Assembly (NCBI GenBank): GCA_023245335.1
Contig: JAHFKK010000001.1
Location: 17,918-81,917, forward strand
Source of the DNA: Candidatus Gottesmanbacteria bacterium
Lineage (GTDB): Bacteria; Patescibacteriota; Microgenomatia; UBA10105; UBA927
Direction of reading: 5' to 3'
DNA: 64,000 nt
A program made the translations under genes and the position numbers. Shown one piece after another: positions 8,478 to 57,400 of the stretch (positions within the stretch are counted from its first letter, which is position 1; each line of letters starts with the position of its first letter). Under the pieces are notes generated by a model that was not told where the DNA came from, did no database searches, and worked only from the letters and a program-made list of their open reading frames with translations.

Positions 8478-8510
8478 TCTTCTTCATGGCTTTTTAGCCA
8501 CGAGAAGAAG
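8478..8510. terminator. Imperfect hairpin between convergent LRR and methyltransferase genes (possible bidirectional terminator)
   Basis: CTTCTTC(A)TGGC - TTTTTA loop - GCCA(CGA)GAAGAAG. It lies in the 16-nt gap between stop codons at 8465..8467 (+) and 8484..8486 (-). Confidence 0.3.
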
Positions 8511-9251
8511 CGATGACCCCCACGGATAAGAAATGGTGGAGAGAAGTGAAGCCTCTACCCCGCATACGGAAGATAAAAAAGCATTCCATGAGTTTCTCAA
8601 CGGAGCGACGTCGGAACGCTCGGGCATGCCCTGTATGAAAACCCGACCCCAAGCTATTTTGAGCACAAATAACGGAAAAAGAAAAAAATACGTATACGTT
8701 TGTTTCGTTATATCAAATCCAGATTCCCGAACCTCTGTCACTAAATCCGATAAGATATAACGCTTTCGCGCACTCACCGCCTGATCGTGTGGTCCGACTA
8801 ACCAGGGAATGGCACAGACGGTTATGACGAGGAGTCCCCCATGACGGAGTACCCGGTATGCTTCCGCAAACACCCTGTCATCATGAATTCCTTTATGGTA
8901 TAAAACATCAAGCGAACATACCATATCCAAACTATTCGTCTTGAGTCCCGTCGCTTCCGCTTTCCCGAAAAAAATCGGCATATGTCGTTTTCTGGCGTAC
9001 ATTCTTCCCAAGGGATGAGGCTCTATACCGACAACACGGCCGTACTGGGACAAAAATGCGTACATCCCTCCGGTTCCAGCGCCGATATCCGCTATCCGAA
9101 GGCTCCCGCCTGTTTTGACGCCTAATGCCCGAAATACAACAGCAAGAAACGCGCGGCGGCTGATAAACCACCAGTGTGTAAGTTCCACCTCATACATGAT
9201 GTGGTATTCACGGGCTCGCATGAAGAATTCTGCCGGAAATGGCGCCGGCAA
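8484..9251 (-). CDS. Class I SAM-dependent methyltransferase
   Basis: Motif I IADIGAGTGGM and motif II/III region VLRHGGLLVITV. The N-terminal YEVELTHWWF is typical of this MTase subgroup. The start may be the internal Met at 9221. Confidence 0.75.
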   Translation of the reverse strand: MPAPFPAEFFMRAREYHIMYEVELTHWWFISRRAFLAVVFRALGVKTGGSLRIADIGAGTGGMYAFLSQYGRVVGIEPHPLGRMYARKRHMPIFFGKAEATGLKTNSLDMVCSLDVLYHKGIHDDRVFAEAYRVLRHGGLLVITVCAIPWLVGPHDQAVSARKRYILSDLVTEVRESGFDITKQTYTYFFLFPLFVLKIAWGRVFIQGMPERSDVAPLRNSWNAFLSSVCGVEASLLSTISYPWGSSLLLVAKKP

Positions 9252-33453: not shown

Positions 33454-36400
33454 TCATTTCTTTATCAACCAACCGCGGGCTTCGGCGAAACGATAGATCG
33501 GGAGTGCAATATAAGGAACAACCATGCCGATAGCGAACGCGGTGAAATCCTTAAAATCAAAAATATTTGTAGGTCTTAAGCGATAAAAAACGTATAGTTT
33601 TGCAGCAATAAACGCTGCAGTCGTAAATGGAATAAGGGCTAGTAGCTGTATAAGGCGCCTTTTGTTCAAATTAGGGTATAAGGCATCGACAGAAAGCTGG
33701 AAGAAGCCACCAAGCGCTATACCAGTCCCCAACCATCCAAGATTTTGCCTTAAAAAGGAAAAATTAAGATGTGCTAACACGGGAGCAAGATTCGCAATCT
33801 GTTGTGTAACGTTCTTATATATAGCGCTGGGTATACTCTCTATTGTTTCCCCGAGTTTATAGAACGCATCTCCCACAATAAGTGAGCTAACCGAAAGATC
33901 TGCTATGTCTTTTATCAACGATTTTGGTTTTGTATTTGAATTATTCTTAAGAAGTTCGTTAATGCGGGCTGTCAGCATGGGGCGGAGCTGGTCGGCGGTC
34001 ATGTTCGGGCTGTTTTCGAGGAGCGCCTGGTAGGCTTGGGTCTTTTCTACCGCTGCCACGAGCTGATCGACAGTAACCGGCTTCCCCTCTTGCTTTGCCG
34101 CAATCTGCTGTAGAGTTTGGATCGTATCTGCGGTCACAATGGCTTGGATTTGGGAATTAAGCTGCCCGTTCTGACCAGTAATTGACTGACTGTTATTCTC
34201 TCCAGGCCGCGTTAAAAACGCTACCCACTCCTGTGCGGTACCATGGGCTAGTAACGTTTGGTAACGTGGATCTGTACGCGGGGTTTTATACAGTCTATCT
34301 AAATCTAACTTATTCAATACGTTCCGTATCGCCTGCAATCCTACCTGCAAGTTTTCTCCCGATGGTGTATCCGCTGCGTTATGATAAATGAGTAAAAATA
34401 TCGTCGCGCCCTCCGAGTAATGATTCTGTTTGTCTATAAACAAACCGAATCGTTCAAAACGGATATTTTGAAACTCGTGAATATCTTCATCATTTAAGCC
34501 AAGTATCTGCGGCTGTCTTTGTGCCACTTCTGCGAAAAGCTGTTCCATCAGAACCGAAAACCCTTCACTAATCGCATCACTAACCTGTGATCCCACACCG
34601 CTTCCTCGCACACCTTTATCTGGACTTACAATCTGTTCAAAAATCGCGTGACCCAACTCGTGAATCATTGTTTCTACATCAAACACCTTCCTCTTTACCT
34701 TTTGGTGAGTCGAGGATTCCGTATATTCGTTCAGCGCAGCTAACCCGACATGTTCAAACGGCGTCGCTGAAATAATATCAATTTCGTGATTCGCATAGGA
34801 AGCATTCGGATCCTGGATTCCCCCTTCGTGAGGTATTTCCAATAAATCTCCGGGCTCATACTCATTAATCTTGATCACTTTCGGATCTATATATACTTCA
34901 GGAAAGAACCGCTGGTATGCAGTATTAGCAATTTTATACATTCCCACGACATACTGTGCCTTTGCATAGCGCCGAGCCGCATTCCAAACCGTCGTGAGGA
35001 TATAAGTCGGATCATTAAGTGGGTTACTGAGAGCCCATGTCGATTTCCCGAAGAAGACGCGGAATGTAATCCGCGCGAGATTGTTATAGACGTAAAAAAA
35101 TTGATCATATCGATCCAGGGAGGTATTCGTCATTCCAGTATCAAAAAAATTTCTCAAATACGCCGTTAAAGCTGCAATCTGCCCCGCGTCAAGCGTTCCT
35201 TTTGCAGCTGTTATCGCATGGTCGATAAATTCCGGAATCTCTGGCGGCATTTTCGCCTGATGCTGAATCCTCCACTCAAGAGGCTGACGCAAAAAATCTA
35301 TTATTTGGTCATTCATCATGAGCACAAATAATTCTGATCTCAGGGCCGATGATGAATATAATAAATGAACTACTGTATCTCTCGAGAGAGTGTTGGAAAA
35401 ATCAAATTGTCCCATTTCGAAGGCGATGGGTAATAATTCCGGATCCACGGAATGGTCCATAATGGACCACAACCGCTGCAAATCCTCTTGTGATACCTTG
35501 GGGAACATTTGGCGGAAAGCATTTTCATCAAGCAGATTTTCATTTGTATATTGCGCAATATGTAGTAAGCCCCCGTCTGAATATATTTGTGTGAAGATCT
35601 GTTTCATACGCGTGACTGAGGATATTAGATTATTCGGTAATGGCGTTGTAATTTGATTTTGCATTGAGTTATCACGATTATCGGCATTTACTGACTTAAT
35701 ATCGGATTGTAATGTCTCATCATTATTCACAATATTTCCGATTACGTGTCCACTCAAGCCCAGTTGAATTGTTTCATCTCGAGTTATATGCGGTATTATG
35801 GTTATTTGTGGACCGCTTCCCCGCTCACTCGGACCGCCGAAGTGGATAGCATTCCGGATCCTCTGCATCATCTCTCCCTCCCCCTGCCACAAATTCCTCC
35901 CCCGCCCGATCACCAAGCTGCTTGCCTTTTGCGTATAATGCCAAACCCACACGACTGAGCCGACACCGGTGGACATCAGGGACTTGAGAAACGTGCGGCC
36001 GACAAACGAACAGCCGCCGCCCAAATTTGCACCGTTTGAGGCAGCATATACGCGAGAGACTAATAGGTTGTATGTATAGCACTGATCATTATTTAACGTC
36101 TCTTTCATCGCCTCATACGCTGCTTTAAGGTCCTTCCCGGTTCGAATAGCGGAAGGAATAGCCTTCTCCAAAAATTTTGCCTGTGCGGCTACCTGTGCTT
36201 GGGCTTCCGGCTGTGCCGAAAGGATGGCGGCCTGACGGATTTTCTGATATCGTATTTCCGCGTTCATTGCGGCAAAAAGAGGGAGAAGAATGGCGTTTTG
36301 CGCCTCCGTAGACCGACGCAGGTAATTGGTGTTTGTGAATAATATTCCGAATTCACGGCTTGATAAAACCGCGTCAAATATTTCATCATTTGTATGTATC

Positions 36401-39400
36401 CGAATATCTTTTGTACTAGGTGAAATTGTTATACCCTCAACCGCCTTGGATATCACCGGCTCGAGTCGGTTATAGGCATCCCAAAGTACATAGTAACCCG
36501 AAAGATTCTTATTCTTGGAAAACGACGATTTTTGAGCATCAATACTATACTTACCCGACTCGACTGACGGACTCGTGGCAAATTGATTTTTCCGAAGCCT
36601 GCGCACCGTCCTTTTCCCATCTGCCAGCGTCACGTCATACAGAATAAGGGAGCCCTCGTTATATGGCTCGATCGCAGTCACGATCCCCGGCACCATTGTC
36701 CCATTCCCTTGCCCGACAAGGACAACGTCTTCAATTGCAATGCCCTCCGGCGTCGGAAGGTTTCGTTTCGTTATTGACCAAAGCCCGCGAATCGGTGCCG
36801 TTATGACTCCAATAAATCCCTTATTCGATTTATTGAGAATAGAATCGACACCCACCACTGCCTGACCAGTAAGGTAATCTTTCATCCATTTCCAATTCCA
36901 CTCCCACGCAATCGGTTTTTTCCACGTCCATGGCTTCCAACCGCCGGCAGTAAAGCGCTGCCAGTCTGTTTCGTAGAGAGGAAGCGTAACGCGGGCAATC
37001 TGTCGGGGGAATAGAAGCGGTGTCAATAACCTGGAACCAATCCATCCATATACGTTATGTATCGGTGTTGCGTTACGGATAAAATCCGGTAAACTGCGAT
37101 ACGTAAAATCCGCAGCGTCTAATACGTCAAATACCATCTGACCCACCTTCGCCTCATCCATCTTCCAGAAGGGAGATACCAGCTCGCCGCCTGACCGGAT
37201 GATGGAAACTACACCGTTTGCCACAAGTTCTCGGAACGATGTCGTCAATTGATCACTGAAAGTCTGAATGCTTGTATTTATATCGTCTCTGCGAGCGGCA
37301 ACCCACTGTGGAATTAGTCTCCACCAAACAGTATTCGTGGCTGGTACACTGGGACGGACAAACAATCGCAAATTTTCCTCCGCAGTTATGCTATATGTAT
37401 TCGTATCCGGCCTAGTAGACGCGTTCATCTGCTGGAATAGAGCTTGTGTCGGCAGCGGCTGAGGCCGAAGCTCCTCTTTCATTACACTAGGTTGATTAGA
37501 GTTTAGAATTCCTAAACGGGTTAACATATTTCTCACTGCGTTCCCTAGTCTTTGCCATAGTTGAGTAAGTAATGTCGAATTAGTTGTAGGCGAAGCCCTT
37601 ACGGACTGTTCTACTGGAAACACATATACTTTGGCAGCAGAATTGTACTGTCTGACGGTATCTGTTGCTTCGATATTCGGGCCATACACTAACCGTGCGC
37701 CATTTTGTAAAGTCGTCTGGATAAAGTTAGATCCGTGCAGATATCCCCAAAGTTGCGCGGAAAACGATGCCGAAAATTTCTTGAGTTGTGGGGCGTTGGT
37801 TGGTGATATTTTGGCATAGACACGCGGCGCTTCCAAAAGAAATCTCCTGGATGCCATCACGAACGCACGCGCTGTCTCCTGATCCGGTTGTCCTGATTGC
37901 GGGAGCGTCGCTATAACCCGAAGCAGTTCTAACCCGGCATCGGTATAGAGCTGCTTATATTCTTCATCGGTAGTTAAGCTTGACCGCAATGACGCAAATA
38001 TTCCCTGAAAATTTCGTATCGAAAGATCTAGCTGTAATATTTGCAGCCTGAGCGCTTTCCATAACTCATCATTCGTCGCGTGTTGTGTAACTGTTCCCCT
38101 CTGTTCTTTCTCAAATTCGATAGCCGGAATCCCCTCTGAGGCAAGCTGAAAAAATGGAAACAGGAAGTTCACCTGCTGGAGCGTTTCATAATGACTCGCT
38201 ACATTCGAATTTTTGGCGAATATATTCCAAAGCAGTCGTATTTTTTGTTGATCGGGAGGGATGCTTAAAAAATCCATATACATGGCTTTTGATACGAGAA
38301 CGGCTTCCACATCCTGATCACTAAACAATTCAGAGTGCCCGCCATATGTTTTTGTTTTATATTCATCATTGGCAAACATATCCGTAATCTCCGCATAAAG
38401 CTTTTGTGCCGTATCGCTCAGCTTCAGATTGGCCCGAAGGGGGTGAACACTATCAACGATGAGGAAAATATCGGTGTCATTTGGTATGGGTCCGGTCACC
38501 GTGCTGCCGTATACCACTTCTCTGGGGTTGGTAATAGCACCTGCTATCTCTAACTCCCGTACTGCGCCATGAAGCGAAGCTAACTTTTGCTGAAGTACTC
38601 GTGGTTGATTTGCAAATAGCCTGATGTCTGTCGTTCCCTGCCGTAAATTTCCCGCCCTGCCCGTAACTACCTGCACCGCCTCCCCAGCCTGCTGCCATAG
38701 ATTCAGGACCAATCCCACAGGTTTCTGCCCATAGTGCCATACCCAAACTATCGAACCAATGCCGGTAGACATAATGGATTTAAGGAACGCGCGGCCGGCA
38801 AACGAACATCCACCATCTGGGTTTACCCCGCTTCCAGCTGCGTAAACGTGCGGCACCAATGAGTTATAGGCATAACACTGATCATTTGCTATAACAGTGA
38901 GAAGTAAATCAGGGAGATTTTGCTTCGGCGTGACCGCCGCGCGATCAGCTTGAATCGTATTGATGGTAAGTCTGGAAGAGCTTGCCGGGTTAAACGGAGG
39001 ACGGGATTTGAGTATCAACGCCTCCGGACCGTTTGTTTTGAGATACGTAGCCAAATCGGTAAGATACGTATTCCCACCTTGTGTTAGCGCGATTGAGGTA
39101 TCGTCTTTTATAATCCAATTAGACGTGGGATCATCCGACTTGGCTTGCTCTCGTGAAAATCCGTTCACTGCAATCCAATCCCCCGCCTGCTTCAGTGTAG
39201 GTGCGCCCTGCCCCGTTGATTTATATAGCAAGATTCTATTCCCTGTTGGAAGTTCTAATTCCAAAAAATCTCTATCTGACACTAGCTGTCTATCTAATAC
39301 TGCAACGTTCGCGGGATAAAACGGTACCCCGTTCAACCCGTTATTTCCGGTCACTTTTTGTTGAAGATTCGCGAGTACCTCTGTGGCAACCTGATCCGAC

Positions 39401-42400
39401 GGTACATTGATTCTCCACCGTGCCACTATCGTCCCCTTGTATGGTGCGACCGGTTCTGTCACACCGGTATAGAAGTTACTTGGGTTATACCCTTCTCCCT
39501 TTATTAAAATGGTAAAACTGGGATCTTCGGCGGCTAACGATATGTTTGAATACCCGAATAATCGTGCTTGTTCCGTGATTGCCAGTGGTGCATTTTTCAG
39601 TATAAGAAATCCGTTCAGTTCGAGAGTCCTTTGCGCCTCCGCCAAAATATCTGGAAGTGTCGCTATTGTTACATCCGAAGCGATCACTGCACCGACACTA
39701 TTATCGGGAAATGGTAAGTTTGTCCCGCTATCTACGAAATTCAATGGATGCGTGGCGCCAACAAAATCACCTAAAGCGGTTCCAGCATACGGACTTGATT
39801 TGGCGGGGACCATCTGGGAACTTGATACTGTCTTACTGAATCCTACGCCATCAACCGCTTGTCCGGTAATATCTATATACAGACCACGGGGCGGATGCAT
39901 GTTTGCTGCGAATTCCACAATATCCACTACATTCTGCGGTATCGTGAGTAGCGGTTGAATGAGAGTCTTCTCGACGGACATCGACGACACATTCAATACG
40001 CCTGTCGGCTGCGGCTTGGGCGGATTTTCTGTCACCAATACACCCTCCTCACGCGATGTATTGGTAAGATACCGCTGCATGGCGGCCATGAATATCGCTT
40101 TCACCCGAGCCTCATTTTCCGCATGCACTAATGGAGCACCGGGCGGCTCGTTGGCGGGATTCGCATACAGTACCGTAATCTCCAGATCTTCCGGATTGGT
40201 CATATCCAGCTTCCATGATCGGATGGTACCGCGAGTCGAGAAAGGATCCAAGAAGCTAAATACGCCGTCTCCGGACAGATTGTCTGCCACCATGCCCTGT
40301 ATAGTTTCCCGCCAGTCCGCCTGAGCTAAATCATTTTCCGCCGCGCCAAACGCCTCAGTGAACTGCGTCTGACCTATGAGACGGCCGTCTGAAACAATGC
40401 CGAGATCCTTTCCGACCACCGTCGCACGTACATCGTACGAGATCCCATCGCGCACTTGATATATTCCGGCAAGCGATCTCGAAATTTGATTGATCAGCGC
40501 CTGCGCTTCTTGCGGGCTACCGACAATCGTTAGCTCGAAATCTCCGCCTTTTCTGAGGATGTCATACCAGGCAGCCGACCCCGTCTCTCCCATGTGGTTA
40601 GCCACAGAAAGCCTATGAAACATCTCTTTGATAAACGCGTTCCCTGCCGCATCGCCATAGGTATCATTGATAAGCTTCAATATTCCCGGCACACTGACGT
40701 GGAGTAGATATACTGACTTCCCGTTTGACGAAGCCTTCGTGAGTCGGTCAGTTAACGTACGGAACGCATGATCGAGGTAGTCCTGACGGTAGAGAAACGA
40801 CTCCATGTTCTCCTGTGCGGCTTCGGTAAAAAGTACCGGATCAAGGAGTGCCTCCTCGATAAACAGCTCGTATTTCGTCCTCACTGCCCACGGTATTTTA
40901 TCCAGGGCGGCAAAAAAATCAGCAAGTTCCGGGTGTATGGCGATGACTCTACTCCGCTGTAGACCCGCAGGTAACGGCTCGCTACGGTCCAGTAGTTCGG
41001 CCCATTCGTCAGCGGCTCCCGGGAGCGCCCGTACACGGGCCTGGTCATAGGCTACCGTTCCGCCTTTGACACCATATAGGGCAAATACTCCGCGTAGTTT
41101 AGCGTTCAGCTCGCTCACAATATCCCCCAGTGGCGTACGCGAAACAATCGCTAACGTATCCCCGTTTACCCGTATATCCCAAGTCGTGAGATTGTGCGAT
41201 TTTTGCAAATCGATAATCGTTTGAGCAATGTCATGTATGAGGACATCTCCGGTGACGCCGTATGGCTTCGCCCCGGTTTGATTTGCGCTGTACACGTCTT
41301 TGATGTCGACGGTTGCCACATAGAAGTTTGCACGGACCAGGCGGGGGAAAACGAATGAGGAAAGTATAGAAATCGCATTTCTGACAGTGCCGAAATGCGA
41401 TAAGATGGTTTGTGTCCGGTCCGGAGTCGCTACGTTGCCGTTTTCCGTAATCCTTGGAGTCTTCGGAAATGTTGCACCGGCGATGTCACGATTCAATCCT
41501 GGATCCAAAAGCCGGTTGTTGGCAAATAGATTAAAAAAGTTTATTTGAGATACCGGCATACCCGCCAAATCTGTCTCAGGGTTGAGATAATAGAGTGTCT
41601 TGATGACATCTTTGACCGTCGGATCTAGGGGTGCTATTGGACCTCTCGCAGCCGGTGCGCCCGTGGGAAGCGGAATGTTTTCGGGCGCTTCCTGAACCGG
41701 TTGGACTCTGGGTTCAATACCAAATAGTGGATTAGTATATACTTTGAACCATTCTGTAGCCTTTTGTATCACTGTGTTAATCGCTACCGTTACGAATTGG
41801 GAGTTCGATAACGATTCAGGAGTGATGTCTTCCGCCGGACTCGTGTTTCCGTACCTTTCGTTCGGTAATATGACGATCGGCTCATTGAGATTAGGTATAT
41901 CTAATACATAGGTCTGGTCGTATATCGTAAACTCTGCCACGTATCGCCTCGTAAGACCTACGGCAACGGTCCGTAGCGTCGGCGCAAAGGTTGCCAGATA
42001 GGGATCCCGTTTCATCGCCGCCACAAGTGCAACCACACCGGCATCCCGCTGAGAAATAGTCCGGCTAACATCCGGTATCGCCCGAATCGCTCCACGAACA
42101 GCAGATTCGTTTGCTGCCAACTGACTAATCACTGCATCCCGCAGGCTATCCTGGTAATACGGTCCGATTTTCTGCTTCCAGACAGCTGCGGTCGGATAGT
42201 GACCGATCACGGAGTCTATAACCGGTATACCGTGCTCGTCCGCAAACGCATGCGTAGGAATTTGGTTTACGATATGATCCTGCCCGTTTTGGGTCGCGAA
42301 GATGCGCACCCGCTTCTGGGCAACCAAAGTGACCAGGGTGGTATCCCATTGGATGACCGGCTTATGTTGGAGGATGTCATACCACCGAAGCGTATACGGT

Positions 42401-45400
42401 ATATTCTGCTGATTCTGCCGGTGCACAAAATCCGCATCGGATACCGCCGGATCACGGGTAAGTCCGCTTAACCGGGTATCAACGATCAATTTATCTACCC
42501 CCAACAATTTTGCGAAAAATAAAAGCGGAACCCGTACTAATTCCGGAGTCTTAGAGTCATTGACGGTCCGATATGCCGTGCCTAACCAGGGTACGCGAGA
42601 CCACTTATCATCAAATGCCGTGATCGTATCCGGTCCCAGGAGATACGGCGATAACAAACTGAAGTCCGAATTCATGTCTTCTACTAGATTAGGGTTCGCC
42701 TTTGCGTACTCGAGGACTATTTGCGCGCCAGTCGAATGCCCCAGGAAACGAACCCGTGTTTTTCCGTTTCCGAATGCAAATGTCGCCTGATCAGCGCTAG
42801 TTGCGGTCAATGCTTTCATGAAGTCGTTAAATTGCCCAAGCATACGTTCGTATTGGTATGTACTCGATGTCCCGGCAAAACTTCCCTCTCCGCCGCCCAT
42901 GGTTGGTGCCACGGCTATCTGGCGAATTCCATCCGTCCCGTACGGCACAAGATCCTCGCTCATGGGTTCGGCAAATACCCTGCGGTCCGCCTGAAATCCA
43001 TGCTGGGCAACGATGACTTCCGTCGCCCGTTCTATGCGTGTCTGTGCTTCGTCACGAAGTTGGTCGGGAGATACGTCCGCAAGTCTCGATCGATCGCCCG
43101 GAGTCAGCTTCGCCATCCACAAAACCGGTGTGTATTTGGCGCCGTAAAATGATGGATTCTTCACGGGCTGATACCCGGAAACATACAACATATCGCCTTC
43201 TACCCGCGCTACCCCTACGAACTGATGTTTGGCATCACTCGGACCGGCTTTCACCGCCTGTGCTAGATCCTGTCCCAAGCGATCCGGCAAGTTGTACTGC
43301 CGTGCCGTCCACCACGTCCCGACATAAGTTGTAATCTGCTGTATGAGGGGGGTTACGCTGTTTAATGCTGCGGCAATCGACCCAAGCCACCCAGGTAACA
43401 CGTGAATAAAAGATGACGGTAACAAGCTCAGTGGTCCTTGATTTGATAAGTGAGAGGCCTTAAGCGGTGGATTAACTTCTGCAGGTTTTTCATCAACGCC
43501 GTTTAGATAGTTTAGATATTCAAGTTTTGGATACATGTGCTTACTTACGAAGTAATAGTTATCCTTATACGGCGCGTTATATAGAGCCGCCAAATTGATA
43601 TCGTTCGGAAAAACACTTTCCTGAGTAAACCGCAAAAGCCCCTGAACATCACCCGGTAATGTCTGCACTGGAGACGACAATAATTTGCCGTTCGCATCGC
43701 GGATGTTTATCCGCAGGCCATATGTGATAAAGGCTTGTGTGCGCAAAATACCAAAATTCACACTAACATCTGTTATTTCCGCAATGGGATATGCTCCATC
43801 CTGAAAGGTTGCACCACTCTTACTTTTATAACTTAGCCACGACCCGACACCCTCCGTATACTCTTTTACATTCCCATCTGGAGTAAGAGACAATACATTT
43901 TCAATGCCGGAGCTAATGGTGCGCACATCTGGTCGTGATTGGGCGTATGTCAATACTGCTCCCTGCAACAATTTCCCCAACCCGGCGTTGCGGGTGTCCG
44001 GAGAAACGTAAATAAATTGTGTATAAAGATCCGATTTTTCTTTGTTGTACTCTCCTCCAACAAATCCAAGGGCTTTTCCACTCAAATCAGATATAACTAA
44101 TGTAAAAAATCCTGGTTTCGCTTGGTCAACCCATTGTCTGACTTCTGTTAACTGAGCAAAGGCTTCCGGAACCTTTGCAGAAACGGTGACTCTGTATTGC
44201 CCGGAGGAGTCAGCCATAAACGTATTATTCAAAGGTACGGTCGGATTTATTACTGAAACCGCCTGCGGCGGCGGTTGGGATTGAGGCTCGATATTTTCCG
44301 TTACTGACAGTTGCGGCGTCTTTAGGTATTGCCGTATCGGCGAAAGCGCCTGTAGATTATCCTTGTGCTGGATGACATCTTCAAACCCCACGACATGACT
44401 ATTTAACCACTCGCGCACGGTCACCCCGTCCGGATAGCGTCCCCTATCTTCAAGTCCAAATCCACCAAGATGATTCCAGGCATCGGAAAGAATCCATTGC
44501 TTAAATAGCTCCGCATCTTTGCGTGTACCAACGATATAGAGCAGGTAATCCGGTGGAATAAAGGTCTGATTCAACTTTTCATCAGTCACTTGGATATCCG
44601 ACTCTGATACTCCCTCAGGCAAAACCGTGACAACGGCATATCCGTTGAAAAAATCTCCTGCTGAGGCACCGATTGTGGACTTGCCAAAACCACCTAGCCA
44701 TAGCGGCTCATGTTCATTGGTACGGAGCCCAAAATCTAAAATATTGCGCAGTCCCTGGGCAAATTCGCCTATATTAGTCGCATTTATCGTAACGGAATGA
44801 CCGTTAATTTCGGCGTTTTCCAATATTTGACGCACTTCTTCGCTCAAAGAGCGAAACGTACTATCTCTGATATTAGCCGTCATCGTTTTTTCTAAGGCCC
44901 GGTACCCTGCCGAGTCTATCCAATACGACTCGCCCTTTCCGTTCGATAAGGTTAGCGGATGCGCACGAAGTCCCGTGGTAAATCCGAGTTGACCATAGGT
45001 TGCTGACTGGGCTATCATCGGACTCAAATGGGTATATTGCAGCCCGCCAACCGTCATTTCTTGAGGATTGATAGAAGGATTGACATGCAGAAGTAATTTG
45101 CCAATCGTCGGTTGCTCTGTTGGACTCAGCGCCTGGACAATCGTCACTACTGGTGGATCTACCAACATTGCCGCAAACTTCCCCGTCGCAACAATTACGT
45201 CCCCGACTGCACAATCATTTAATCCTGCAACATTGTTTCCCTGTGCATAGACGGGAGGAATAAGCCTCATCGCACTCTCACCACAGGCTTTTTCCCGTAA
45301 TGCTTCCGCTTGCGTTGTGATTGTCTTCTTCGCAGGATCCGTGATCGGTGCATATACTGCTTTTAATGATTTATCCGTCTGGACAAGTGGTACGACAATC

Positions 45401-48400
45401 GCGCCGTTTCCGCGAACGAGTCCGAAATAGCGGTGCAACTCATTATTAATAACTCCGTTCGCCTGCCACCAGAATTTAGCCGTAACCACAATCCAATCCC
45501 AAATACTTGGCGCATTCGCTGGTATACTGCCTATCCCCCGCTGCAAATCAGGCGCTTGCTGGACTAAACGGGTGAGGTATTGAAGGTATCGCACCTGCTG
45601 CTGCCACAGCTTCCAGATGCGCGAGAACGTGTCAGATACACCATACGCAGCAAGATCTGCTATCGCATTTTGGTTTGCCTGTATGTGTTGCGTATTGGTG
45701 GCTTTAACCACCGCGTGCTTCAAGAGATTACCTGCGACCTGTGTGCGAAAAATAGCTTGCGGAAGGATATCCGGTTGCACTTTGACCGCTGCCCCACCAG
45801 TAAGTACCCCTGTGTCTGGCGCGATTACACTCGCGTAGGAAACATTACTTGCGACTGCGGGCGGATCAGCTTTATTCCGTAAAAATAGCGTCGTCCGAAT
45901 GGGCGCCACGACGGACTCAAAATTCGCCGCTGCCACAAGATACGTATGAGGTAGACCATCCGCATTCCTATTCGCCTCGGAAACTAGAAAGTATTTACCA
46001 GCCGGTAGGTTATATACGTTACTCTGCTCAAGATCGAGTACGTGTAAGACGGTAAACGTATGATTTAAATCTGCCATCCATCCCACATCGCCATCACGAA
46101 TATCATCAACAGAACCAAGCCGGTATGCATCGTTCGCACGCTGAGCCCCACTGAAAAGAATTTTTCCTGCCGTGCGCTTAAGGTAATTTATAACAATATC
46201 AATTTTGTTATCACCCTTCTTCGCTTGAGGGAATATTCCCTGTGCCTTATTTGCGTCATATATTGCAGCAAACATCCCCTTCGCATCAGGTCGCAACGGG
46301 TAATCGGTAATATTGCCGGCCATGTAGACCCCAGGAATAGTATTAAGAAGCTTGTCCCAATCGACACACTGAACTAATTGCGACACCGGTTGCTTATTGA
46401 CCGTCACAATTGTGTAATCGCTTTCAAGATCAAGCAATTTTGCCGTAAAGTCTGGATATTTCGCCTGATCCAAAAGATACGCCAATGGAGATCTGCTTAT
46501 CCGTGCCTGGAAGTAAAGCCGGAACGTCGTCCCATTATCCTTAGTCGTTATATCAGCACCGGATTGATACGCGTGAATTGTCTGCTGTATTTCGGGAAGT
46601 GATTTCTGACTGTAGTCCGTAACAAAAGATTCCAATGTAGTTATCGTCTTAACATCATCCGTACGGGCCGTCTGTGACGTAATAGTTATCATCTCAGACT
46701 GAGCGTCAGCTTTTGGATTCGTCCCTACGGGAACGGTATTTGGTGCGATTACAGACTGCGGGCTCGTTGTGTTCGCCACAGTTTGTTGCGGTGATCCAGG
46801 TGGAGTTGTAGCAATCGTAAAGGCATCTGCAGAAATTTTCTGCATTACCGGCACAATATCATTTACTTGCTCCTGCGAGCTAAATTTACTTAAAAACACC
46901 ATGATATATGCCCCGCCTTTCGGCAACCTCACGATAGCGATATCGTTTGCAGTATTGAGTCCTCCTTGTTCAAAGACGTACCCAATTTTATGCAACATTT
47001 GTGCTCGGACGCTTGCCGGCAGCGGCTCGCCGATCCACCATTTATCATCAGCGGTAGGCGTAGTTAACAACGTCGTGATATATCTGGTACTACTGTCCGA
47101 TATTCCGAGTGACTTATCGTAAAATTTCTCCAGCAATGTACCCACATCATCTGCAGTCATATATCGTGTTTGGATATCAATATGGGTTAGATTCCATTGC
47201 TGGAAAATTTTCTCCTGGGAAAATCCCGGCTGGAGCAATAAATACTGCAGTAACACCTGAGCAGCGGTGTCATCTGACCGAACTAAGGCGCGTTTCATGA
47301 GGTCAGCTGTCGTGCTGTTATTCCAGGACGGGTTATCAAACCACAATTTGTTATGTTCTGCTAAAAACTTTACCGGCCGTTGACTCAGGATCTGCTGATT
47401 CGTGAGACCCTGCTGCTCAAAAAACGAAAAGTACGCAATGACAAGAGGCCATTTAATGGTTGATGCACCATGAAAAGTTACATCGGAATTTATACGAACG
47501 GTATCCGCATCTGTTCCCCCTATCTTATGTATATAAACTCCGATATCACCCGGTAACGATGAGAGTTTGTTCAGAATAACTACCTGCTCTTTCCCATAGG
47601 AAAGCGGCATGGCGTCCAGACCTACCGTGACAGCCTGCTCATTATCGACAGGAACAGGAACATAAAATGCTTTAGCCCTGCTATCAGTTACAGATGTTTG
47701 TTCAGAATTTAACGTATCCGCTAATTTTCCAAAGGCTTTTGTCTGCAACTTGGTAACCAAATCTGTCACCTCTGCTGATTTCGGCAATACGGTAAATTGT
47801 CCCGTTAAGACCTGGTCAGTTGGTGCGTTGTGTGTAGGATCCGAAGAATACGCAAAATATTTGACCGGTGCTGTGTATTCATTTGGTGTATATAGGCCCG
47901 CAAACACGTTAGGAGCAAACATGTTTAGGATCGTCCCGTCGGAACGGAGTTGAAGTGCGTGCGCGTTCATATGCTCCCATGGCATAACATATCGCCATGC
48001 AACCTCCACCCCGGAATCATTTATAAATGGTATAACATTACCGGTAAACGTTCCGTTCTGCACTGCAAGTAAAGTCTCCTGTGACACATATAACTGTTCG
48101 TATGTACCATCGCCCGAAATTTGCAGGTCCGTCCAAGGCACAGAGTACGCAACCGTATAGTCAGCAGAAATTCCCGTTTCGGATACCGCCGGAAACAATA
48201 ATAGACTCGTCTGATTCGCAAGCGGAGCTCCTGAAGAATCTAGCCCCAATAATAACGGATGAAGCGTCCCCTGACGAAGAAACTCATGAGTAGAAATCCA
48301 CACCTCACGCATTGATGGTTTATAGATGCTTACCGGGAATATATCGTCTGTACCATCAGCGATATTGGGTAGATTGATGATTAACCGTATGTACGAAGGA

Positions 48401-51400
48401 AGGTTTAATGTTTCATTATTGACAGCTAACTTTTCCTGACCCAATCCGACCAGTTCCATTTTGCCGTCCCGAATTATGACAAACTTGCCTATCGAGACGT
48501 CTTTCCCGTTCTGATAATCAAATAGTTCATACACCGAACTCACGAATCCGGGCACGTCCTGATTAAATTGGTGCCAAGGGACACCGCTATTAGTTATGTC
48601 GTCTCGCCGCCGCATGAGAAGATTTCCATTCTGATCAACATACTCAAGCGGTTCGTAAAGCAGGATGGATTTATCCCATGTCGAAACATCCGCCTTATTT
48701 TGGGTAAGTCGCGTTCCCAAATCATCGATGGATGTGATTGTGGACACGTCAATATCTGCTGCTAGAGCCGGGTGATCGACGGTAGTGACTGTATTATTCT
48801 GACTGTCAAAACCGATAATTTTCCCGTCTCCATTAACGTACAGTGTAAATCCTTGATGATATACAGCGTAGAGAGTCTGATTAAGCCAGCTAAAGTTCGT
48901 CCGGTATGCATATAGGGATCCGGTCCGATCGAAACCAAATTTAGCCGCAATCGGATGGCGCTCGCTATTGTAGTAACCTAATTTTCCATCGATATCCATA
49001 AGCACTCCGGTTTGTAATTGACCTCCAGTGGCTTCTCGGAGCACGAACGGGGCAGAAGAACCAATGATTCGCTGCGATTTCCCATCCAGACCGTTAACGT
49101 CCTCATAAAATCCGGCGGATTCAGGGTAAAACATGGTACCCTGCAACTTTCCCTGTTGTGTTACTGCAAGTAATGATCCGTCCGCCTGGTTACGTTCGGC
49201 CGTTATATGATCAGTCTGTCCGTAGTCAAAATTATACGAACCGGTTTTGGCGTCATAGGAATAGGCCTTTCTCGCACCCACGATAGGCGATTTGCGTTCC
49301 GGTAGAGTTTGCACCATTGCAGGTCGAACTGAAAGACTCGGCGGCGGCTGATAATGCGTTCCCATTATCAAAAGAGCACTACCGACAACGAAAGACATCA
49401 CCATCATGCTTCCGACATACGAGATGAGACCAAAGCCGGTTACAATCATGAGCGTGAAATAGAAATTCCGGAGTGTTCGGTTTTGCAAAAACCATCCGTC
49501 CAGAAACTGATAGGCATGGAGCGCCTGCTGCCCGAATGTCGGACGCTGAGCGTTTACCGCATCATACGTCTGACGGAGCGTGCTATCGGAAAGCACAGCA
49601 TACGCCTCATCAAACACCCGCTGGTGATTCCGTACGCGGAAAAGTATGGTACGCACTAATCTGCTTATTGGTACTTGCCACTTGAATAGGTATACATCTT
49701 CAAATGCAAACGGTCGGTTCAAATTTTCCGACTGGTCTCGATAGGCGGTTTCGATTTCCGCGGTTGTTGCGTTAGGCCGCACACCTAGTTCACGATAATA
49801 ATCTCTAGACCGCGCTGAAATATGCGCTTCAAGCGTTACCCGATCGGGAATTTGTATGACTGCAACAGGTGTCGTGTCTGCACCGATACGGTACTCCAGA
49901 CGGTACCCTTCGTTACTATTGCCTCCAATATGTACCGCTATGGCTTTTTCGGCCGGACGCATCTGAAGTAATGCGACCGCTGGACTGATTTCTGCTGTCT
50001 GCCAAAAGTTTGCCCGGAACATTGTTGGAACCGGAAGCGATATCGCTTTTCTGTCAACCGTATTCACTGTCATTGCATTACCGACTTGTTTCGTTACCGG
50101 AGCGGACGTAATACCGTTTAATAAGAATGTTGCTAATACAGTCGCACGTTTTATTTCCGGAGTGAGGTCATCAGGCGTACGGACGCTTATAAGCAACCGG
50201 GTTAATACATTCGCTTCTTCTTCGGGGCTTCTGCCATCAATCACCCATTCGTCATATCTCGAACCCGAGAAGTCTCGGTTCCGCAACGCATCGACAACAT
50301 CATGGATCTGTGCCACCAAATCAGTATCTACGGAAATGTTTACGACATTCTGTACCTGATTGGTAATGATATCTGTAACTGATTCCTGAAATGCCGTGTC
50401 GGCAAAGACACTGGGCAACTGATGCAACCAGATATCCATGCGTTCATGGATAAGAGTCAGGGCGGCGTCTGTCTGATCGGTTCTTAATAGTTCAAATATT
50501 CTACTTCCTAACGGGTCGGACGGGTCGGTAAAGGCTATCCGCAGATTCCGAAACTCTCGTATAGACACGAGTGCGTCTGTCGAACTCATAGACCTCCACG
50601 CGGTTAGAAGCGTACTCTGTGCAGATCGAGGTAACCGATCCAAAGCCCATGCAAGTTCAGTTACCTGATCGGTTAAGGTCGCCTGAGCCGCATTTAATTG
50701 TGTTGTGTATGCTGACGGAGTCATTCTGGGAGCATACGAGAGAGCATTTTTTCCGCCGACATCGGTTACTCCCAGCTTCTGCCTGATCATGAGACTTAAT
50801 GCATTCGTCACGTGTAAAAGAGACTTACTCGACCCTTCACGCTCCTCCCAAATGCGCTTTTGTGCAAGACCAATCAGATCCGAATCAAGTCTCAACTGTT
50901 CTGTGACAATCGGGAAAAACCGTGATAATTCATTTGCTGTGGTTAGCTGATCCATCTGTATAGTGAGTGCACCGCTTCGATATTGATTAAAAAGCCACAC
51001 CGTATGTTCTGCGGCGACCAAGTTTGCTTCACCGGCCGGAATACCGGGGTGTGTGGTTTGGAGTCGAGCTTCAAAAAAGTTCACTATTGCATCTTGCGCA
51101 TTAGTAGAAAATAACTGCAGTATGTGTTCAAGTTCGGTATCGGAAATATTTCGGAGTTCCTGACGGTACGCGTAAAATCTTGTTGCTGCCTGCTCTATAC
51201 GGTTGAAGTGCTTCTTTGCACGGAGATTTATATTCGAAGCGGAAAATATACCTACAGAGATAAACGCGTCAGCGGGCAGCCGCTGCTTGATCTGGGCATA
51301 TTGCACCCGGTCATCAGAAGAAATAATTCCGAGGACGACCGCCTGTTCAATGCGGGGCGTAACGTTGGTATCCCATACGATCAGTTGTGTCATCGCCTGT

Positions 51401-54400
51401 GCCGCCATCGTACGCGCTGTTGTAGAAACCACATCACTGGCGCCCGACTGCCGCAGGCGGGAATCAGAACGCAGGATATTGGTTATTCCATCTTCTATGC
51501 CTCGTTCCAAAATTTGTTGATCAACATTCTTATTCAATAATGACTGAATAAGCTGATTTAGCTGTGTTGTGTGACTATTTAATATACCTGTTATGATACT
51601 GCTCACTGCAGGCGGCTCTCCTATAGACTGTGGTAGTTGATGTCCATTTACTAATTCATTCGCCAATTGATCAATGGCTATCCTTTTCTGTTGCGCTTGT
51701 TGTGCTTGTTGACGCGCAAGCGTTTCTGCTTCTTGTATCCGGGATTGTTCGGTAATATTGCGAAGACGCGCGACTAACGGATCAGTAACCGCGCGAGTCA
51801 CTGAGTATTGCTTGCCCATCGCAGTTAACCCTTCGGTTACCGCTTCTTCGAGATCAATAAATAAACTATTTGAAGTTTTTGGAACTGGTTGTGGACTTCT
51901 CATTCCTCCACCGCCGGGCCCTGCTCCGCCGCCTCCCTCCGCCCCTGGGCTACCATCATCATGATGTATTACTTCGATATCCTTTCGATCAGACGGGGTA
52001 GGTCCGTTATTGGTAAATACCACCACCTCGCCCGTAAGTAGTTTTTGTGGTTTTGTTATATCAATTGGTGCGCTGCCAAGGTCGTCAAATGCATAATATT
52101 TTTCGGTAAACAACCCGTCATACACGACAACCCGGCCATCCTGAAGCTCAAAAAGTTTGTACCGCAGTGGCATTAATTGCGGCGAGGCAACAAACGGTGA
52201 TCCTGCAGGACTTTCCATGAGCGCCGTGTGTGCACTCTGCACATCTTGCTTACGCATCTCCCGCGCCTGTTCTCCATTTATGAGCCACACGGATCCACCA
52301 GCGAAGTAGGAATCACTGTTGAGAATTTCTATTTTTTTCGGTTTTGTATAGACTGCACCACTTGCCCCCACCACCGCGTATATACTTCTTCCCTGTGCTA
52401 ATACCATCCCGGACGTGAGATAACGTGTGGTTCCAGAAGTTAAATCAAACAAGAATGAATATCCCACATCGTCCACAGTGGTTGTGTACACATCAAAACC
52501 AACGTCCCAAAGAGGAATAAGAGACCTATTTGGTAACGCCCGGTGAAACTGTTTATCTACGGAACTGTATACATATATAACGGGCCTTTTAATAATTGTG
52601 TTTGAAAAAATAATCTGGTGCGGTTCATCCGGCTGAATCACAATAGGTCCATTAACCTCAACCCCATCAACCATAACTTTACTTCCTATAAGAAAACCGA
52701 GATGAATTCCACCTGGCTGTATCGTTTCGTATATGGCGGTTTCCGGAAGAAATACTGCATTCTGAGGAACGGAGGATACATCGGAAATACGGTTTTGAAT
52801 TATGGTCAATACCTGCTTACCAACCGCATCAGTGTCCAAGACACTTAATTGTCCATTGTCTCTTCCGATGTTAGAGTCGCTACCACCCAGACCGGCATCT
52901 TGGATATATCCGCGCATTCGGCCGTACCGATCTACGTCCTCTATCGAAAAATTATCCGATGGCAAACCCACATCCCTATCGGGTTCTTGCACGTCAGTGC
53001 TTATGGCTTTAAACACAATAAACAGGGTGTCGGGATGTCCATTCCAATCAGCGTGTCCAAAACCGTAAATAGGAGTCTGTAAATCTCTGAACTCCGATAA
53101 ATATTGGTAGATTAATAATTCGACATCATTACCGCCGGTGCCCGTAATTGTGTGGGTTATCTCTCTAAACTTAATAATATAATCGGTATTTTCTACACGA
53201 TATACATACGGACGCGAAGACAGAGGTATTAACCTATGCCCCGCGTAAGTTATTGTGTCTGTCGCCGTATCAGTTACCAGCGATGTACTTACGTCCGGAA
53301 TTGTTGGAATCCAGGGAGTCGTTGCTGTTTTTCGGTCAGCGTTCGTTCCTCCCTCTCCGCCTGCCCCCGTTCCTCCACCGTCCGGTTTTGCCCCACCACC
53401 TTCCCCGCCCTGTTTCGGCAAGCCAAAAAGATACTCCCCGATTGTATGGGTAAGGGCAGCAAGTTCTGTATCGGAAATACCCAGATGATCCGGGGCTTGC
53501 TCATTGGTTTCCAGCTGTTGTTTGAGCGTCTGGTAGAGAAATGCTTGGACTGTGGGAGTAACGGTGTTATCAACTTTGGCGTCAGAGAGGGGCGCGTCGA
53601 GGAATCTCTGTAATGTGTCGGCTTGTATGTCTCTCAATGACGTATTTTTTTCTAGTGCCTCTATCGCCTTTTGTGTCGCGGAAAGAGTCTTGGGGACATC
53701 GGTGATGTTGGCAGAACCGATGATCCGGATATAGACAGGTATACGCGTGAGAAACTGCTGTACGGCGACATCCGCGGGCGTTCCCTTCACGCGGACATAT
53801 ATCGAGGAAATGGTATCCCGGATTGCTTTTCCGGCATCCTGACTGCCGAGTCGCATGACGAGTGCGACCGGCGGAATGGTGCTGACGCCTGCCTCAGACA
53901 TCGCTTTCAGCGTCGTATTCACGACTTGTCTAATTTGGGATTGTTGTTCGTCGGTCTTTAGACCCGTCGTGTTTACGATAAGGGTAGTGATTTGACTGGA
54001 AACTGTGTTGGGGCGTTCAAAAAAATTGGCAGGTTTTGCGGGCGTCCGGAGCCATAGATAGTGAGAGATCTCCTGAACTAACGGCTGAAATTCATCAGAG
54101 AAGATGCCGTACCGCTCTTGCAGTGCCGCGAGTGTCTCGGGATTTGATACCTGTAAATTCGTCTCGGTCGGGAATATCTGTCGGAGAAGCTCCGTGGTGA
54201 TTGCGGCTTCGTGTGCCGCGAGAAAATCCGCCTCTTCTTGACTTGCCGGCCGCACCCATCCGTCGTTTGCCTTTTCCAACGCCTCTAGAGCCAATAATTC
54301 CTGCCGCACAAAAGTCGGCACCTGGTCCGTGTGATCAACTCCTACAAGGAGTATTGTCCTGGTATAAAAAGCGAGTAACGCCTGCTGTGCCGGAAGGTTA

Positions 54401-57400
54401 TTTGCCAGTTGAGTTCTCTGTGCCGTCATGCGCTGCAATGGATTTACATCGTTTTGCGGGATCAGATATCCGTTCATCTCGTCCACCGTCATGTCGCGGT
54501 GTATACCTAACTCATCGGCCAGAATCTGCGCATTCCATTGGAAATCATCCAGGGTTTGTAACTGCTCGGGAGATGCGTTTGGAATGGGTTTCGGTGTTTC
54601 CTTCCCTATCCGGATCGGTGTGAGGGCGAGTTGGTTTGTGGAAGTTATGTTTACTCGGGCGACAACATCGCGTCCCAAAAGAATCTGCGTTCCGTCTCGT
54701 AGTATTCTTCCTTCCACGGGGACAACTATCAAAGGAAAATCCTCCATGCCGGGATATACTATCTGCGTGCTCGTTCCCGGACTGAGTTCCGCGTCATCTA
54801 CCATCCATGTCTTCGATTCGAGGTTAAAGTATATTACCGCGTGTTTTCCCAATACCGTTGGGATGGTTGCAGGATCAAACTGTATCGCATTATCTACATC
54901 CGTACCCAAACTAATCCAACTGCTCTTAGTAAAATGTTCAGTCGGATAAAACACCCGAACAGTTCCCACATTTACTGCAGCCGCGGTTTTCCCCTTCCCC
55001 GTCCGGCGCCAGACCCGGAATGCATTATCAGGTTCTTCCTTCACAAATCCCGCTGCTTGGTAAAATGCATTGAGCCGGGCCGATAAATCGACGAGGTTGT
55101 CGCCTGCTTTATATCCCGCCGGAGACGGTATGACGCGTACTCCCACACTCCCGGTATTGAGATTTTTGGCGGCTTCCAATAGGCGGGTACCGATATTTAC
55201 CCCCTGATAACTAGGATCCACAAACAGTACGCTTATCTCATCCAAATCGCCCGTAGGAGAAGTCTGTACCGCGACAAATCCGGCAACCGCACCGTTATAT
55301 TCGTCTCTTGCGATAAGGATCGCAGCGTTATTGAGTGATGCCGCCAACGGGAGATTCGTGATACCAGGATTTTCTTTTTGAACGCGCGCAAGCATCCCGA
55401 CGACGTCATCCGCTGTCCCTTGTTGTACCGTCACATCGACCGCAGTAAACAAGTTACGAAGTGGCGTGACCATGTCCAAATATTGTTGATCAGTGATGCT
55501 CTCGTCTCTCTGTAAATTATCGACTTCACGACCCAATTGGTTCACCCGGATTTGTCTCGCTGCAGCGCGCTCGGTGGCCGCACTCTTCGTATTGCCTACG
55601 CCGGTATATGCTTCCGCGAGCATTTGGTGGATATACATCTGGGCCGCAGAAAAGATGAGCGGGTTACTGTCCGTACGCTTGCCGTATTCCGCATTTACTG
55701 CCGTGAGCGTCGTCGTCAGATCCTGTATTGCCTGATCAAATTCTCCGTTGGCAAGCCGTGCGTCAATTGCCGAAAATTGTCGGATGAGGCTTGCGACATA
55801 CTTTCCGCAGTCGTCACAATTTTGGTAATATTCGTCCGGTTGACCATCCGAAGTTTTGGGAAGTATGGCTGCCCGTTGCAGCATCGCAACGATGACTGCG
55901 GTCAAAAATGACGGCTGCGACGGGGACTCCGGGATGCTCGCCGGGAGGTAGATAACCGGGCTATCCTCCTCCGGCATCATTTGAGCTACCTCACGGATAA
56001 TGTTCGCTTCACGCTGGGCGGCTGGATTTTTCCTGAGTATTGCCTCAAGCGTTTTGAGGTCCTGGAGGCCTCGTTGATAGTTCGCGGTACCGGGCTTCAT
56101 TAACGCTGACTCAAGTGACGTAAGGAATTCATGCATATTCTCGGTAGGCCCGACGGGAATACCGACTTGCGCAAGTGCAGTTGTCGCCTCTTTGATTGCC
56201 GCTCTCGTCTCTTGAGTATTCTCGAAAGGTGCCTCCACAGTCTCTACCGCGTTCACGATCACGCGGCGTACGCTCTGCACAAAATCCGGGGATTCTATGT
56301 GCTTGTTTTCCGACGCCAACGTATCCCGCACCAACTCCAATGCGCCTAAAAGTTTCGTGGCTGCCTGCGTATCGGTTATGGCATCCACCTGGCCTGTTAC
56401 CTCAGGACGCGTGAGGGCAAGAAACACCGAGAACACAGTAGGGTTAGTTTCCGGTATCGTGACGCCGGCATTGGTAAACGCCCGGACGACCTGACCCGTG
56501 AGCGTCCGTAGGTCTGCTTCACTCATATCCCCGCGTACAATATGGCCATTTATTATCGCCATTTCCCGTACCACTTCGAGCATCACGCTTTTTATCTGAT
56601 TAATTGCCGCAAGCAGCTCAAGCGTCACTGCAGCCGTCGTTTGAGGAGTAACGATGATAGGGGCTGGGCTTTCTTCTTCCGCAGCAAATTCACTTATTGT
56701 TGTCGTATTGTCTACGCTTACCGGGACTAAATGCAGCTGCTTTTCCAGATTATCTATCTCGACAGTTAGACTTTGTAACACGGCAGTGATACGACCAAGG
56801 GTAAATACGCTCTGTGCATCCGATTTATCCGCAAGACTGAGTTGATAATCGGATAGTATCGACGCTAATTCCTGAGTGACCTCCAACTCACTTATTGGCT
56901 CCAAACCTTGTGTCAGCTGCCGTACTACCGGATCTATGTCGGCGGCTATCGCGGGGTCAAAAGTGGCGCTTCCCATATCCGCCACCAACTGTGCTGCTAT
57001 GGATAGCAACTGTTGAACGGGTCGTTGCGGCAATGGATTCACTTCATTTTGGATAAACGATCCCACTATGTTTGCCTCATACTCGGAAGAGGCAACTACT
57101 TCAACCGATGCAACATGAGACAACATCGGTGCCACTTCTGCTATTGCGCGATACGTTGCTGCTAGACTGTCCGAAATATCGACTCCGCCTTTTCCGGATC
57201 CCATAATCGGCAATGCTATCGTCTGAACCCCTGCAGCATCCGCCTCCAAAAGGGCATTCTTTATGCTCTGATAAATCGTATCGGTAGTCATAGGTATACG
57301 GCCCGCATAGGTTGTATCTGGAATGTAGCCTGTCGCTATAGCCTGAATAATGTATTTAATTTTTGTCTGAGAAAAACCCCGAGCTATCTGCACTACTGCA

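Follow-up and report, generated by a model that had tools for sequence, protein, structure and literature searches.

What is the role of a short cysteine-bearing block that recurs within a single giant bacterial protein? We addressed this question for a stretch of 64,000 nucleotides (hereafter, the window) from contig JAHFKK010000001.1 of a Candidatus Gottesmanbacteria bacterium (assembly GCA_023245335.1, positions 17,918 to 81,917), the minus strand of which carries a giant open reading frame (ORF). The frame runs without a stop codon up to the window edge at 63999 and the encoded protein thus comprises at least 10,181 amino acids (aa); residue numbers used here count from the ATG at 63906, and a still longer protein is possible. 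An original prediction, made from the DNA letters, had singled out two similar blocks in this ORF as copies of a thiol hydrolase domain. We find that these blocks, referred to as copies A and B, arose by an old duplication within the gene and represent a module specific to its lineage, present in giant proteins of Microgenomatia (Patescibacteria/Candidate Phyla Radiation [CPR]) and that, judged by its sequence, this module does not appear to be a member of the papain/NlpC-P60/CHAP hydrolases.

Both blocks lie where they had been reported, with the motif NDQCY starting at aa 8341 (nt 38886) and aa 9273 (nt 36090), and VWVWHY at aa 8387 (nt 38748) and aa 9319 (nt 35952). When 300-aa pieces of the giant protein were compared with the whole by BLASTP, A and B emerged as its sole strong internal repeat, with 70% identity over 60 aa (8341–8400 versus 9273–9332; E = 9e-26)—in keeping with the more than 60% claimed—and a spacing of 932 aa, where ~930 aa had been given. 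Their Smith-Waterman score was 263, against 39 ± 5 (maximum 59) for 200 shuffles. The suggested domain size of ~100 aa, however, proved too generous: the alignment spans ~72–76 aa with a single 4-aa gap, the flanks are not alignable, and the block measures only ~75 aa (aa 8341–8412 and 9273–9348). Copy A consists, in this order, of a helix (LPDLLLTVIAN), C8344, YAYNSLVPH, VYA, AGSGVNPDGG, C8367, a second helix (SFAGRAFLKSIMS), GIGSIVWVWHY, and NLWQ. A second, weak self-match of the giant protein (aa 8563–8639 versus 9129–9192; 31% over 77 aa, E = 0.003) is not collinear with A/B.

At the DNA level, the A/B core is ~68% identical, its 60 codons comprising 17 identical ones, 25 with synonymous and 18 with non-synonymous differences. 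Saturation of the synonymous divergence (dS) together with a non-synonymous divergence (dN) of 0.19 shows that the duplication is ancient rather than recent, and that both copies have been under long-term purifying selection.

Relatives of the module proved difficult to reach directly. Word-indexed protein searches with copy A and with 5-copy and 21-copy alignments returned no match, and the same was true of back-translated module scans of GTDB genomes, JGI metagenomes, and IMG/VR. Phage and plasmid collections likewise lacked the module when searched by tblastn, and plasmids lacked the region when searched by blastn. An exhaustive HMMER profile search of 1.84 billion representative proteins gave two matches, the top one of which (P0001), a 19-fold tandem repeat with a 'GGGGC' run, was rejected as spurious. 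The other, P0002, is a real homolog of 1,862 aa with three module copies, and the JGI metagenome contig encoding it shows synteny with the window: downstream, a PIG-L deacetylase (47% identity) and an 844-aa membrane protein (55%) follow in the same arrangement. Giant aa 9064–9314 align with P0002 aa 19–250 (37%, E ~1e-38), the homology stopping inside copy B, which ends a ~210-aa region homologous to the P0002 N-terminus.

Where the module scans had found nothing, relatives were reached solely by way of the conserved 844-aa neighbour gene: its alignment, used as bait, recovered 15 further loci, six of which hold the 3′ 2,600–3,300 codons of a giant minus-strand ORF at the same position. The 844-aa gene (46–65% protein identity across these loci) is followed by a large minus-strand ORF in loci L004/L005 and in six further ones (L006, L009, L011, L013, L015, and L016), and a six-frame search with a hidden Markov model (HMM) uncovered diverged module copies in L006, L009, L011, L013, L015, and L016. 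Whether giant ORFs in related genomes share the module, a check proposed along with the original prediction, can thus be answered in the affirmative: every one examined holds two to four copies within its captured part.

The giant protein of the window itself contains a third, diverged copy ('type C'), which was found by the Cys-VYA-Cys motif. Its core reads C6208-GESAMRLIPP-VYA-QGNNVAGLND-C6232 (inter-cysteine stretch GESAMRLIPPVYAQGNNVAGLND), and copies in L006 (E = 2e-11) and L015 (E = 5e-15) are its orthologs, with homology over the surrounding 85 aa. We aligned 21 copies from the window protein and the syntenic giant genes of related Microgenomatia. Only the first cysteine (Cys1), the alanine of VYA, and the second cysteine (Cys2) are invariant among these copies, 16 of which were first gathered by a regular expression requiring both cysteines; the valine is nearly invariant, the middle VYA position is Tyr or Phe in 20 copies and Leu in one, and the two cysteines are spaced by 17–26 residues. 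The family-wide core of ~35–45 aa begins with an amphipathic helix ending in (N)-D-x-Cys, followed by ~10 residues, [V/A]-[Y/F]-Ala, a run of ~7–12 mostly Gly-rich or polar residues, Cys2, and a basic amphipathic helix. Four long-form copies, A and B among them, bear an extra G-x-G-S-x-V-x-V-W-H-Y extension.

Several lines of evidence speak for the coherence of this family. The motif C-x(5-14)-[VAIL][YF]A-x(4-14)-C occurs 20 times in nine giant ORFs, compared to 0.16 occurrences expected from shuffles. An HMM built from the relatives' C-terminal copies alone detects copies A and B of the window (independent E values [iE] of 1.6e-7 and 4e-8, respectively), and hhalign between subtype profiles reports probabilities of 88.6% and 93% over 34–42 columns that cover the end of the upstream helix, the cysteine loop, and the start of the downstream helix. 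Homology of the subtypes thus does not rest on the motif pattern alone.

How did the copies come to be distributed in this way? Copy A matches copy B with a score of 258 (69%), against 99–149 to long-form copies elsewhere (P0002 copy 2 and L013_790), and P0002 copies 1 and 3 are likewise mutual best matches (184, 60% identity). These reciprocal relationships indicate duplication or homogenisation of copies within proteins, independently in two lineages, and—together with the two to four copies per related giant ORF—they support the earlier proposal that the gene grew in part by internal module amplification. The surroundings of the copies vary between genomes. L006 shows the order GNAT domain, type-C module, and a block matching giant aa 7434–8038, and in L013 a block matching giant aa 6877–7352 is followed by a long-form module within 100 aa. 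Since the homologous blocks next to the modules are not the same from genome to genome, the module acts as a portable unit where blocks meet.

The distribution of cysteines sets the module apart. The giant protein contains 11 cysteines in 10,150 aa (0.11%), as opposed to an average of 0.67% across the remaining 29 window ORFs. Of these 11 cysteines, six form the three loop pairs (aa 6208–6232, 8344–8367, and 9276–9299), four belong to two isolated CxxC pairs that lie ~1,450 aa apart, and one is single; the chance of four of the 11 landing in A and B is 1.5e-5. The Cys-poor parts of the relatives' giant ORFs likewise have cysteines almost only as loop pairs 17–26 residues apart, and this shared pairing strongly suggests that the two cysteines of a module work as a pair. 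In relatives L006, L011, L013, L015, and L016, a Cys-rich C-terminal region comes after the final module, within the last ~500 aa, amounting in L006 and L011 to at least 25 cysteines in ~450 C-terminal residues; the window protein is without such a region.

We favour the explanation, in which we place about even confidence, that the module is a compact, non-catalytic junction or staple between domains of a nearly Cys-free mosaic polyprotein, and that it may additionally serve as a recognition or processing loop. The paired cysteines would most likely be joined by a disulfide and less likely share a ligand or metal site, thereby closing a loop of ~20 residues that displays V-Y-A between two helices and holds these helices together. 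Closure of the loop by the cysteine pair is suggested by the helix-Cys-VYA-Cys-helix anatomy, the variable cysteine spacing, and the lack of any further conserved ligand.

Several points weigh against this explanation. The invariance of both cysteines is partly by construction, given the regular expression, albeit HMM searches without the two-cysteine constraint revealed no convincing Cys-less copy. A marginal, degenerate copy in L004 (iE 0.0017) has Ser in place of Cys1 and keeps Cys2, a substitution that would be better tolerated by a nucleophile than by a disulfide partner. Two AlphaFold2 models, both of low confidence (pLDDT [predicted local distance difference test] of 38.5 for aa 9040–9420 with a 2-row alignment and 45.6 for copy A with a 5-row alignment), agree only on the helix directly upstream of Cys1 and disagree on whether the VYA segment forms a strand or a helix, and Foldseek with the low-confidence copy A model found no match in the PDB. 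A fixed module position relative to transmembrane (TM) segments was sought and none was seen, and the TM positions give no consistent topology. Finally, many domains of the giant protein are likely cytoplasmic in nature: GNAT, Macro, HD, J-, and methyltransferase-like domains normally reside in the reducing cytoplasm, where disulfides are uncommon.

Might the loops, rather than stapling the protein, mark where it is cut? The disulfide-closed V-Y-A loop could be nicked by an in-cis HExxH zincin or by a signal-peptidase-like enzyme reading the small residues at −3 and −1, with the fragments remaining disulfide-tethered until reduced in a target cell—the logic of AB toxins, repeated within one polyprotein. 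The cysteine pair, 17–26 aa apart in an otherwise Cys-depleted multi-enzyme protein, would suit such a scheme, as would the modules lying between blocks that differ among genomes, the V/A at −3 and A at −1 that are invariant with no Pro after, the HExxH motif in the same protein, and the effector-like domain content. Toxin loops are of similar length (diphtheria toxin C186–C201, exotoxin A C265–C287, botulinum neurotoxin BoNT/A C430–C454), a resemblance that we count in its favour. Yet, no hydrophobic h-region precedes VYA, making a classical signal peptidase I unlikely. The modules show no consistent relation to TM segments, and P0002, whose start is a natural protein boundary, begins at a point ~210 aa upstream of a module and not at one. 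We regard this nicking scheme as unlikely. Somewhat less likely still, by analogy with AB toxins, is that the loops are release sites at which the polyprotein of a CPR episymbiont would be cut into several enzymatic effectors (HD, Macro, GNAT, beta-lactamase-like, GGDEF-like, methyltransferase-like, and zincin), these staying disulfide-tethered until reduced in a host cell.

The original prediction had instead placed catalysis in the module itself, each copy being a papain-like (CHAP/NlpC-P60-type) thiol hydrolase. In such a small enzyme, Cys8344/9276 would be the nucleophile and His8391/9323 the general base. Two such copies would provide amidase or peptidase activity, for example for self-processing of the polyprotein or for attack on a host cell wall. 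In line with this, Cys1 is invariant and preceded by polar residues (N-D-Q), a His follows 47 aa downstream in an alternating hydrophobic segment, with conserved Q/K/N/E residues after it in A and B, and P0002 copy 2 and L013_790 retain this His; the protein is as extremely Cys-poor as many toxins with a catalytic cysteine only, and the diverged copy with Ser at the Cys1 position would fit as well. Across homologs, however, one half of the proposed Cys/His pair stood and the other did not: Cys1 is present in 21 of 21 copies, whereas the His of WHY/YHY is confined to four (window A, window B, P0002 copy 2, and L013_790) and missing from 17, with P0002 copies 1 and 3 reading 'GGLGDLPLL' in its place. 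As the pair is not conserved, the hydrolase assignment fails for the family by the rule of refutation given along with the original prediction.

Other properties of the module point in the same direction. The homologous core of 34–42 columns (~40 aa) appears too small for a papain-like fold, and the low-confidence AlphaFold2 model would put Cys1 after a helix, not at a helix N-terminus. Residues flanking the catalytic His in papain-like families are typically small, whereas bulky aromatics surround the His here (W-H-Y/Y-H-Y). Searches of Pfam gave no thiol-peptidase or amidase family for A and B at E ≤ 0.1, and relaxing the cutoff to E ≤ 10 brought up none for any of the 21 aligned copies. A module profile built from A and B had no match among PDB sequences at E ≤ 10, and PHROGs yielded nothing significant for copies A and B. 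Likeness to NlpC/P60, CHAP, and papain-like enzymes is thus limited to the order of Cys, ~47 aa, and His in four copies, the polar residues before the Cys, and the Cys-poor host protein; profile similarity is lacking, and the invariant Cys2 and VYA have no counterpart in these enzymes. We consider the hydrolase reading very unlikely, and assign an equally small chance to Cys1 acting as a nucleophile in the four His-bearing long-form copies.

No more probable is a metal-binding module, in which the cysteine pair, alone or jointly with a second module or a CxxC pair, would hold Zn or an Fe-S cluster and clasp distant parts of the giant protein, as zinc hooks and zinc clasps do. Strict pairing of the cysteines and the two isolated CxxC pairs, themselves 'half sites', would agree with this, and so would a cytoplasmic location. 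On the other hand, only two ligands are conserved per module, as against three to four per zinc-finger site, no further Cys, His, or Asp is invariant, the Cys-Cys spacing varies over 17–26 residues, and the window protein has an odd number of modules (three). Least probable of all, with hardly any credence from us, is a self-cleaving module in which Cys1, or Cys2 after a 'GGG-C' turn, would cut the polyprotein by an N-to-S acyl shift without a separate protease, akin to SEA, GPS, or Ntn-type autoproteolysis: the cysteines do not vary, many copies have a Gly-rich turn ahead of Cys2 (GGGC in 6 of 21), and the Ser copy is compatible with an N-to-O shift, but the residue before each Cys differs among family members, being D, G, S, V, T, L, P, or I, no assisting His, Asn, or Thr is conserved, and no similarity to a known autoproteolytic domain was detected in PDB sequences or Pfam.

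Further candidates were rejected: a lipobox or lipoprotein signal (Gly at −3, no h-region), a complement- or TED-type (thioester-containing domain) thioester ('CGES' in one copy only), a double-glycine leader (the GG before Cys2 is not conserved), an intein or bacterial intein-like (BIL) domain (no block motifs), and a DNA-level recombination site (only ~68% nucleotide identity, saturated dS).

Table 1. Coordinates of the module copies, their key residues, and other features of the giant ORF and its surroundings (nucleotide positions refer to the window and residues to the giant protein unless noted otherwise).
Feature	Position (nt)	Strand	Residues (aa)	Remarks
Giant ORF	33454..63906	(-)		10,150 aa counted from ATG at 63906
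Module copy A, long form	38671..38925	(-)	8328-8412	
Cys1 of copy A	38875..38877	(-)	8344	
Cys2 of copy A	38806..38808	(-)	8367	
His of VWVWHY, copy A	38734..38736	(-)	8391	
Module copy B, long form	35863..36129	(-)	9260-9348	
Cys1 of copy B	36079..36081	(-)	9276	
Cys2 of copy B	36010..36012	(-)	9299	
His of copy B, counterpart of His8391	35938-35940	(-)	9323	
Third, diverged module copy, type C	45115..45372	(-)	6179-6264	
CxxC pair CVSC	60186-60195	(-)	1238/1241	
CxxC pair CDDC	55809-55818	(-)	2697/2700	
HD domain			1311-1387	Pfam
Macro domain			2156-2248	Pfam
GNAT domain, first			2860-2955	Pfam
J-domain-like			4702-4727	Pfam; start of domain alone
Beta-lactamase-like domain			5458-5671	Pfam
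GNAT domain, second			6586-6664	Pfam
GGDEF-like			7716-7769	Pfam; weak match
Methyltransferase-like			8060-8103	Pfam; weak match
HELGH (HExxH zincin motif)	34648..34662	(-)	9749-9753	
Hydrophobic segments			near 400-460, 4820-4850, 10085-10106	
844-aa multi-TM protein	29967-33417 region	(+)		No Pfam match; adjoins 3′ end of giant gene
Module copy with Ser at Cys1	L004 ORF 6281-12571		822-872 (L004 ORF)	'NNDS...KAYAADGQVLGVKLGC'

The domains collected in Table 1 characterize the giant protein as a mosaic multi-enzyme protein with TM segments. Its HELGH motif, placed between copy B and the C-terminal TM segments, has a Glu ~27 aa downstream and coincides with a weak Peptidase_M32-like match (aa 9744–9790); this site may represent a candidate in-cis protease. 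NCBIfam models run on giant aa 6001–10150, a range covering all three module copies, gave weak GGDEF matches only and none for the module, and one of three flanking segments searched with phmmer against PDB sequences had weak diguanylate-cyclase-like matches (E 0.045–0.08), the other two having none. About 60 aa past copy A, YGSTVTGPIPNDTDIFLIVDS (~38400–38460, minus strand; aa ~8470–8490) recalls the G[GS]x9-13DxD pattern of Pol-beta-type nucleotidyltransferases, a likeness without Pfam support. Pfam assigned no family to P0002, the second L004 ORF, or the L015 ORF.

As to the gene neighbourhood, other window ORFs of at least 150 aa include a polysaccharide or cell-envelope gene cluster, and several have no family match. 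A PIG-L/LmbE-type deacetylase gene also adjoins the 3′ end of the giant gene, both in the window and in L004. Metagenome-assembled genomes labelled Woesebacteria, Gottesmanbacteria, and Patescibacteria hold the nearest homologs of the 844-aa neighbour, and an identical copy of a neighbour protein occurs on metagenome contigs from several samples, some exceeding 1 Mb. In L004 (5694–6398 and 12586–13306), the giant-gene region is split into ORFs of 1,862 and 2,067 aa with an IS1595-family transposase in between, and a PhdYeFM/ParE toxin-antitoxin pair lies downstream, adjoining a duplicated 31-aa fragment of the PIG-L gene 3′ end. Elsewhere in the window, a 273-aa leucine-rich-repeat (LRR) protein (7646–8464, plus strand) has its best NCBIfam matches in the LRR regions of the Xanthomonas type III effectors XopL, XopAE, and XopAC; these matches, all far below cutoff, probably reflect LRR similarity alone. 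The GC skew is negative in every 2-kb bin of the window (−0.02 to −0.21), regardless of gene orientation, a pattern reminiscent of the G/C strand disparity over entire chromosomes that has been reported (PMC7143001) from some members of the Microgenomatia order UBA1400.

Is there precedent for such a module? Its general kind, the Cys-bracketed loops or junction motifs of large modular proteins, is familiar. In AB toxins (diphtheria toxin, Pseudomonas exotoxin A, botulinum and tetanus neurotoxins, Shiga toxin A), an exposed loop where domains join is enclosed by two cysteines spaced 14–28 aa, and the module resembles these in being a Cys-bracketed domain-junction loop within a Cys-poor multi-domain protein. 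It is unrelated to them in sequence, its V-Y-A is not a furin- or trypsin-type site, and it stands apart in its several loops per protein and its conserved flanking helices; both disulfide and nicking are predictions in the present case. Demarcation motifs are likewise known from polymorphic toxins and polyvalent proteins, including VENN of CdiA, DPxGL of Rhs, and the polyvalent proteins described by the Aravind group. Like VENN and DPxGL, the module is a short motif recurring at the junctions of varying cassettes in very large multi-enzyme proteins; unlike them, it has an unrelated sequence and multiple internal copies instead of a single one before a C-terminal toxin. Nothing in the ~68% DNA identity of its copies indicates a recombination site, and no secretion-system context was found.

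Giant multi-domain proteins have been described from ultra-small predatory or episymbiotic bacteria, among them the giant genes of Omnitrophota (10.1101/2023.11.21.568195; see also 10.1101/2025.01.14.632903). The Omnitrophota giants resemble the present one in exceeding 10,000 aa and in combining TM segments with many enzymatic domains in a small-genome bacterium, whereas they belong to another phylum-level lineage than the window, which is placed in Microgenomatia by neighbour-gene similarity. The former source does not contain the word 'cysteine', and the passages of the latter on giant proteins and Patescibacteria do not refer to the module. Among the papers listed in our survey of the literature on giant genes and proteins in CPR and Microgenomatia, none deals with this gene family or module, and the searches of Pfam, PDB sequences, and PHROGs gave it no match. 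The module is restricted to the Microgenomatia lineage, belongs to no curated family, and is previously undescribed.

CPR/Patescibacteria genomes measure ~1 Mb, yet more than 30 kb are spent here on a single gene—about 3% of a genome like the 1.17 Mb contig of a related organism. Arguably, the duplication is less remarkable than its setting, a mosaic multi-enzyme ORF that exceeds 10,000 aa in a CPR genome. Within this protein, the module holds more than half of all cysteines and recurs, strongly selected, between unrelated enzymatic blocks. C8344, C8367, and V-Y-A offer concrete, mutable sites for asking whether such giants are processed or stapled, and the module HMM provides a sequence signature with which to find the family in metagenomes. 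Were the module a structural staple only, the outcome would be a modest domain annotation; were the loops release sites, they would amount to a multiplexed, AB-toxin-like activation and make the module the defining 'junction' domain of giant mosaic effectors that would form a new family in Microgenomatia.

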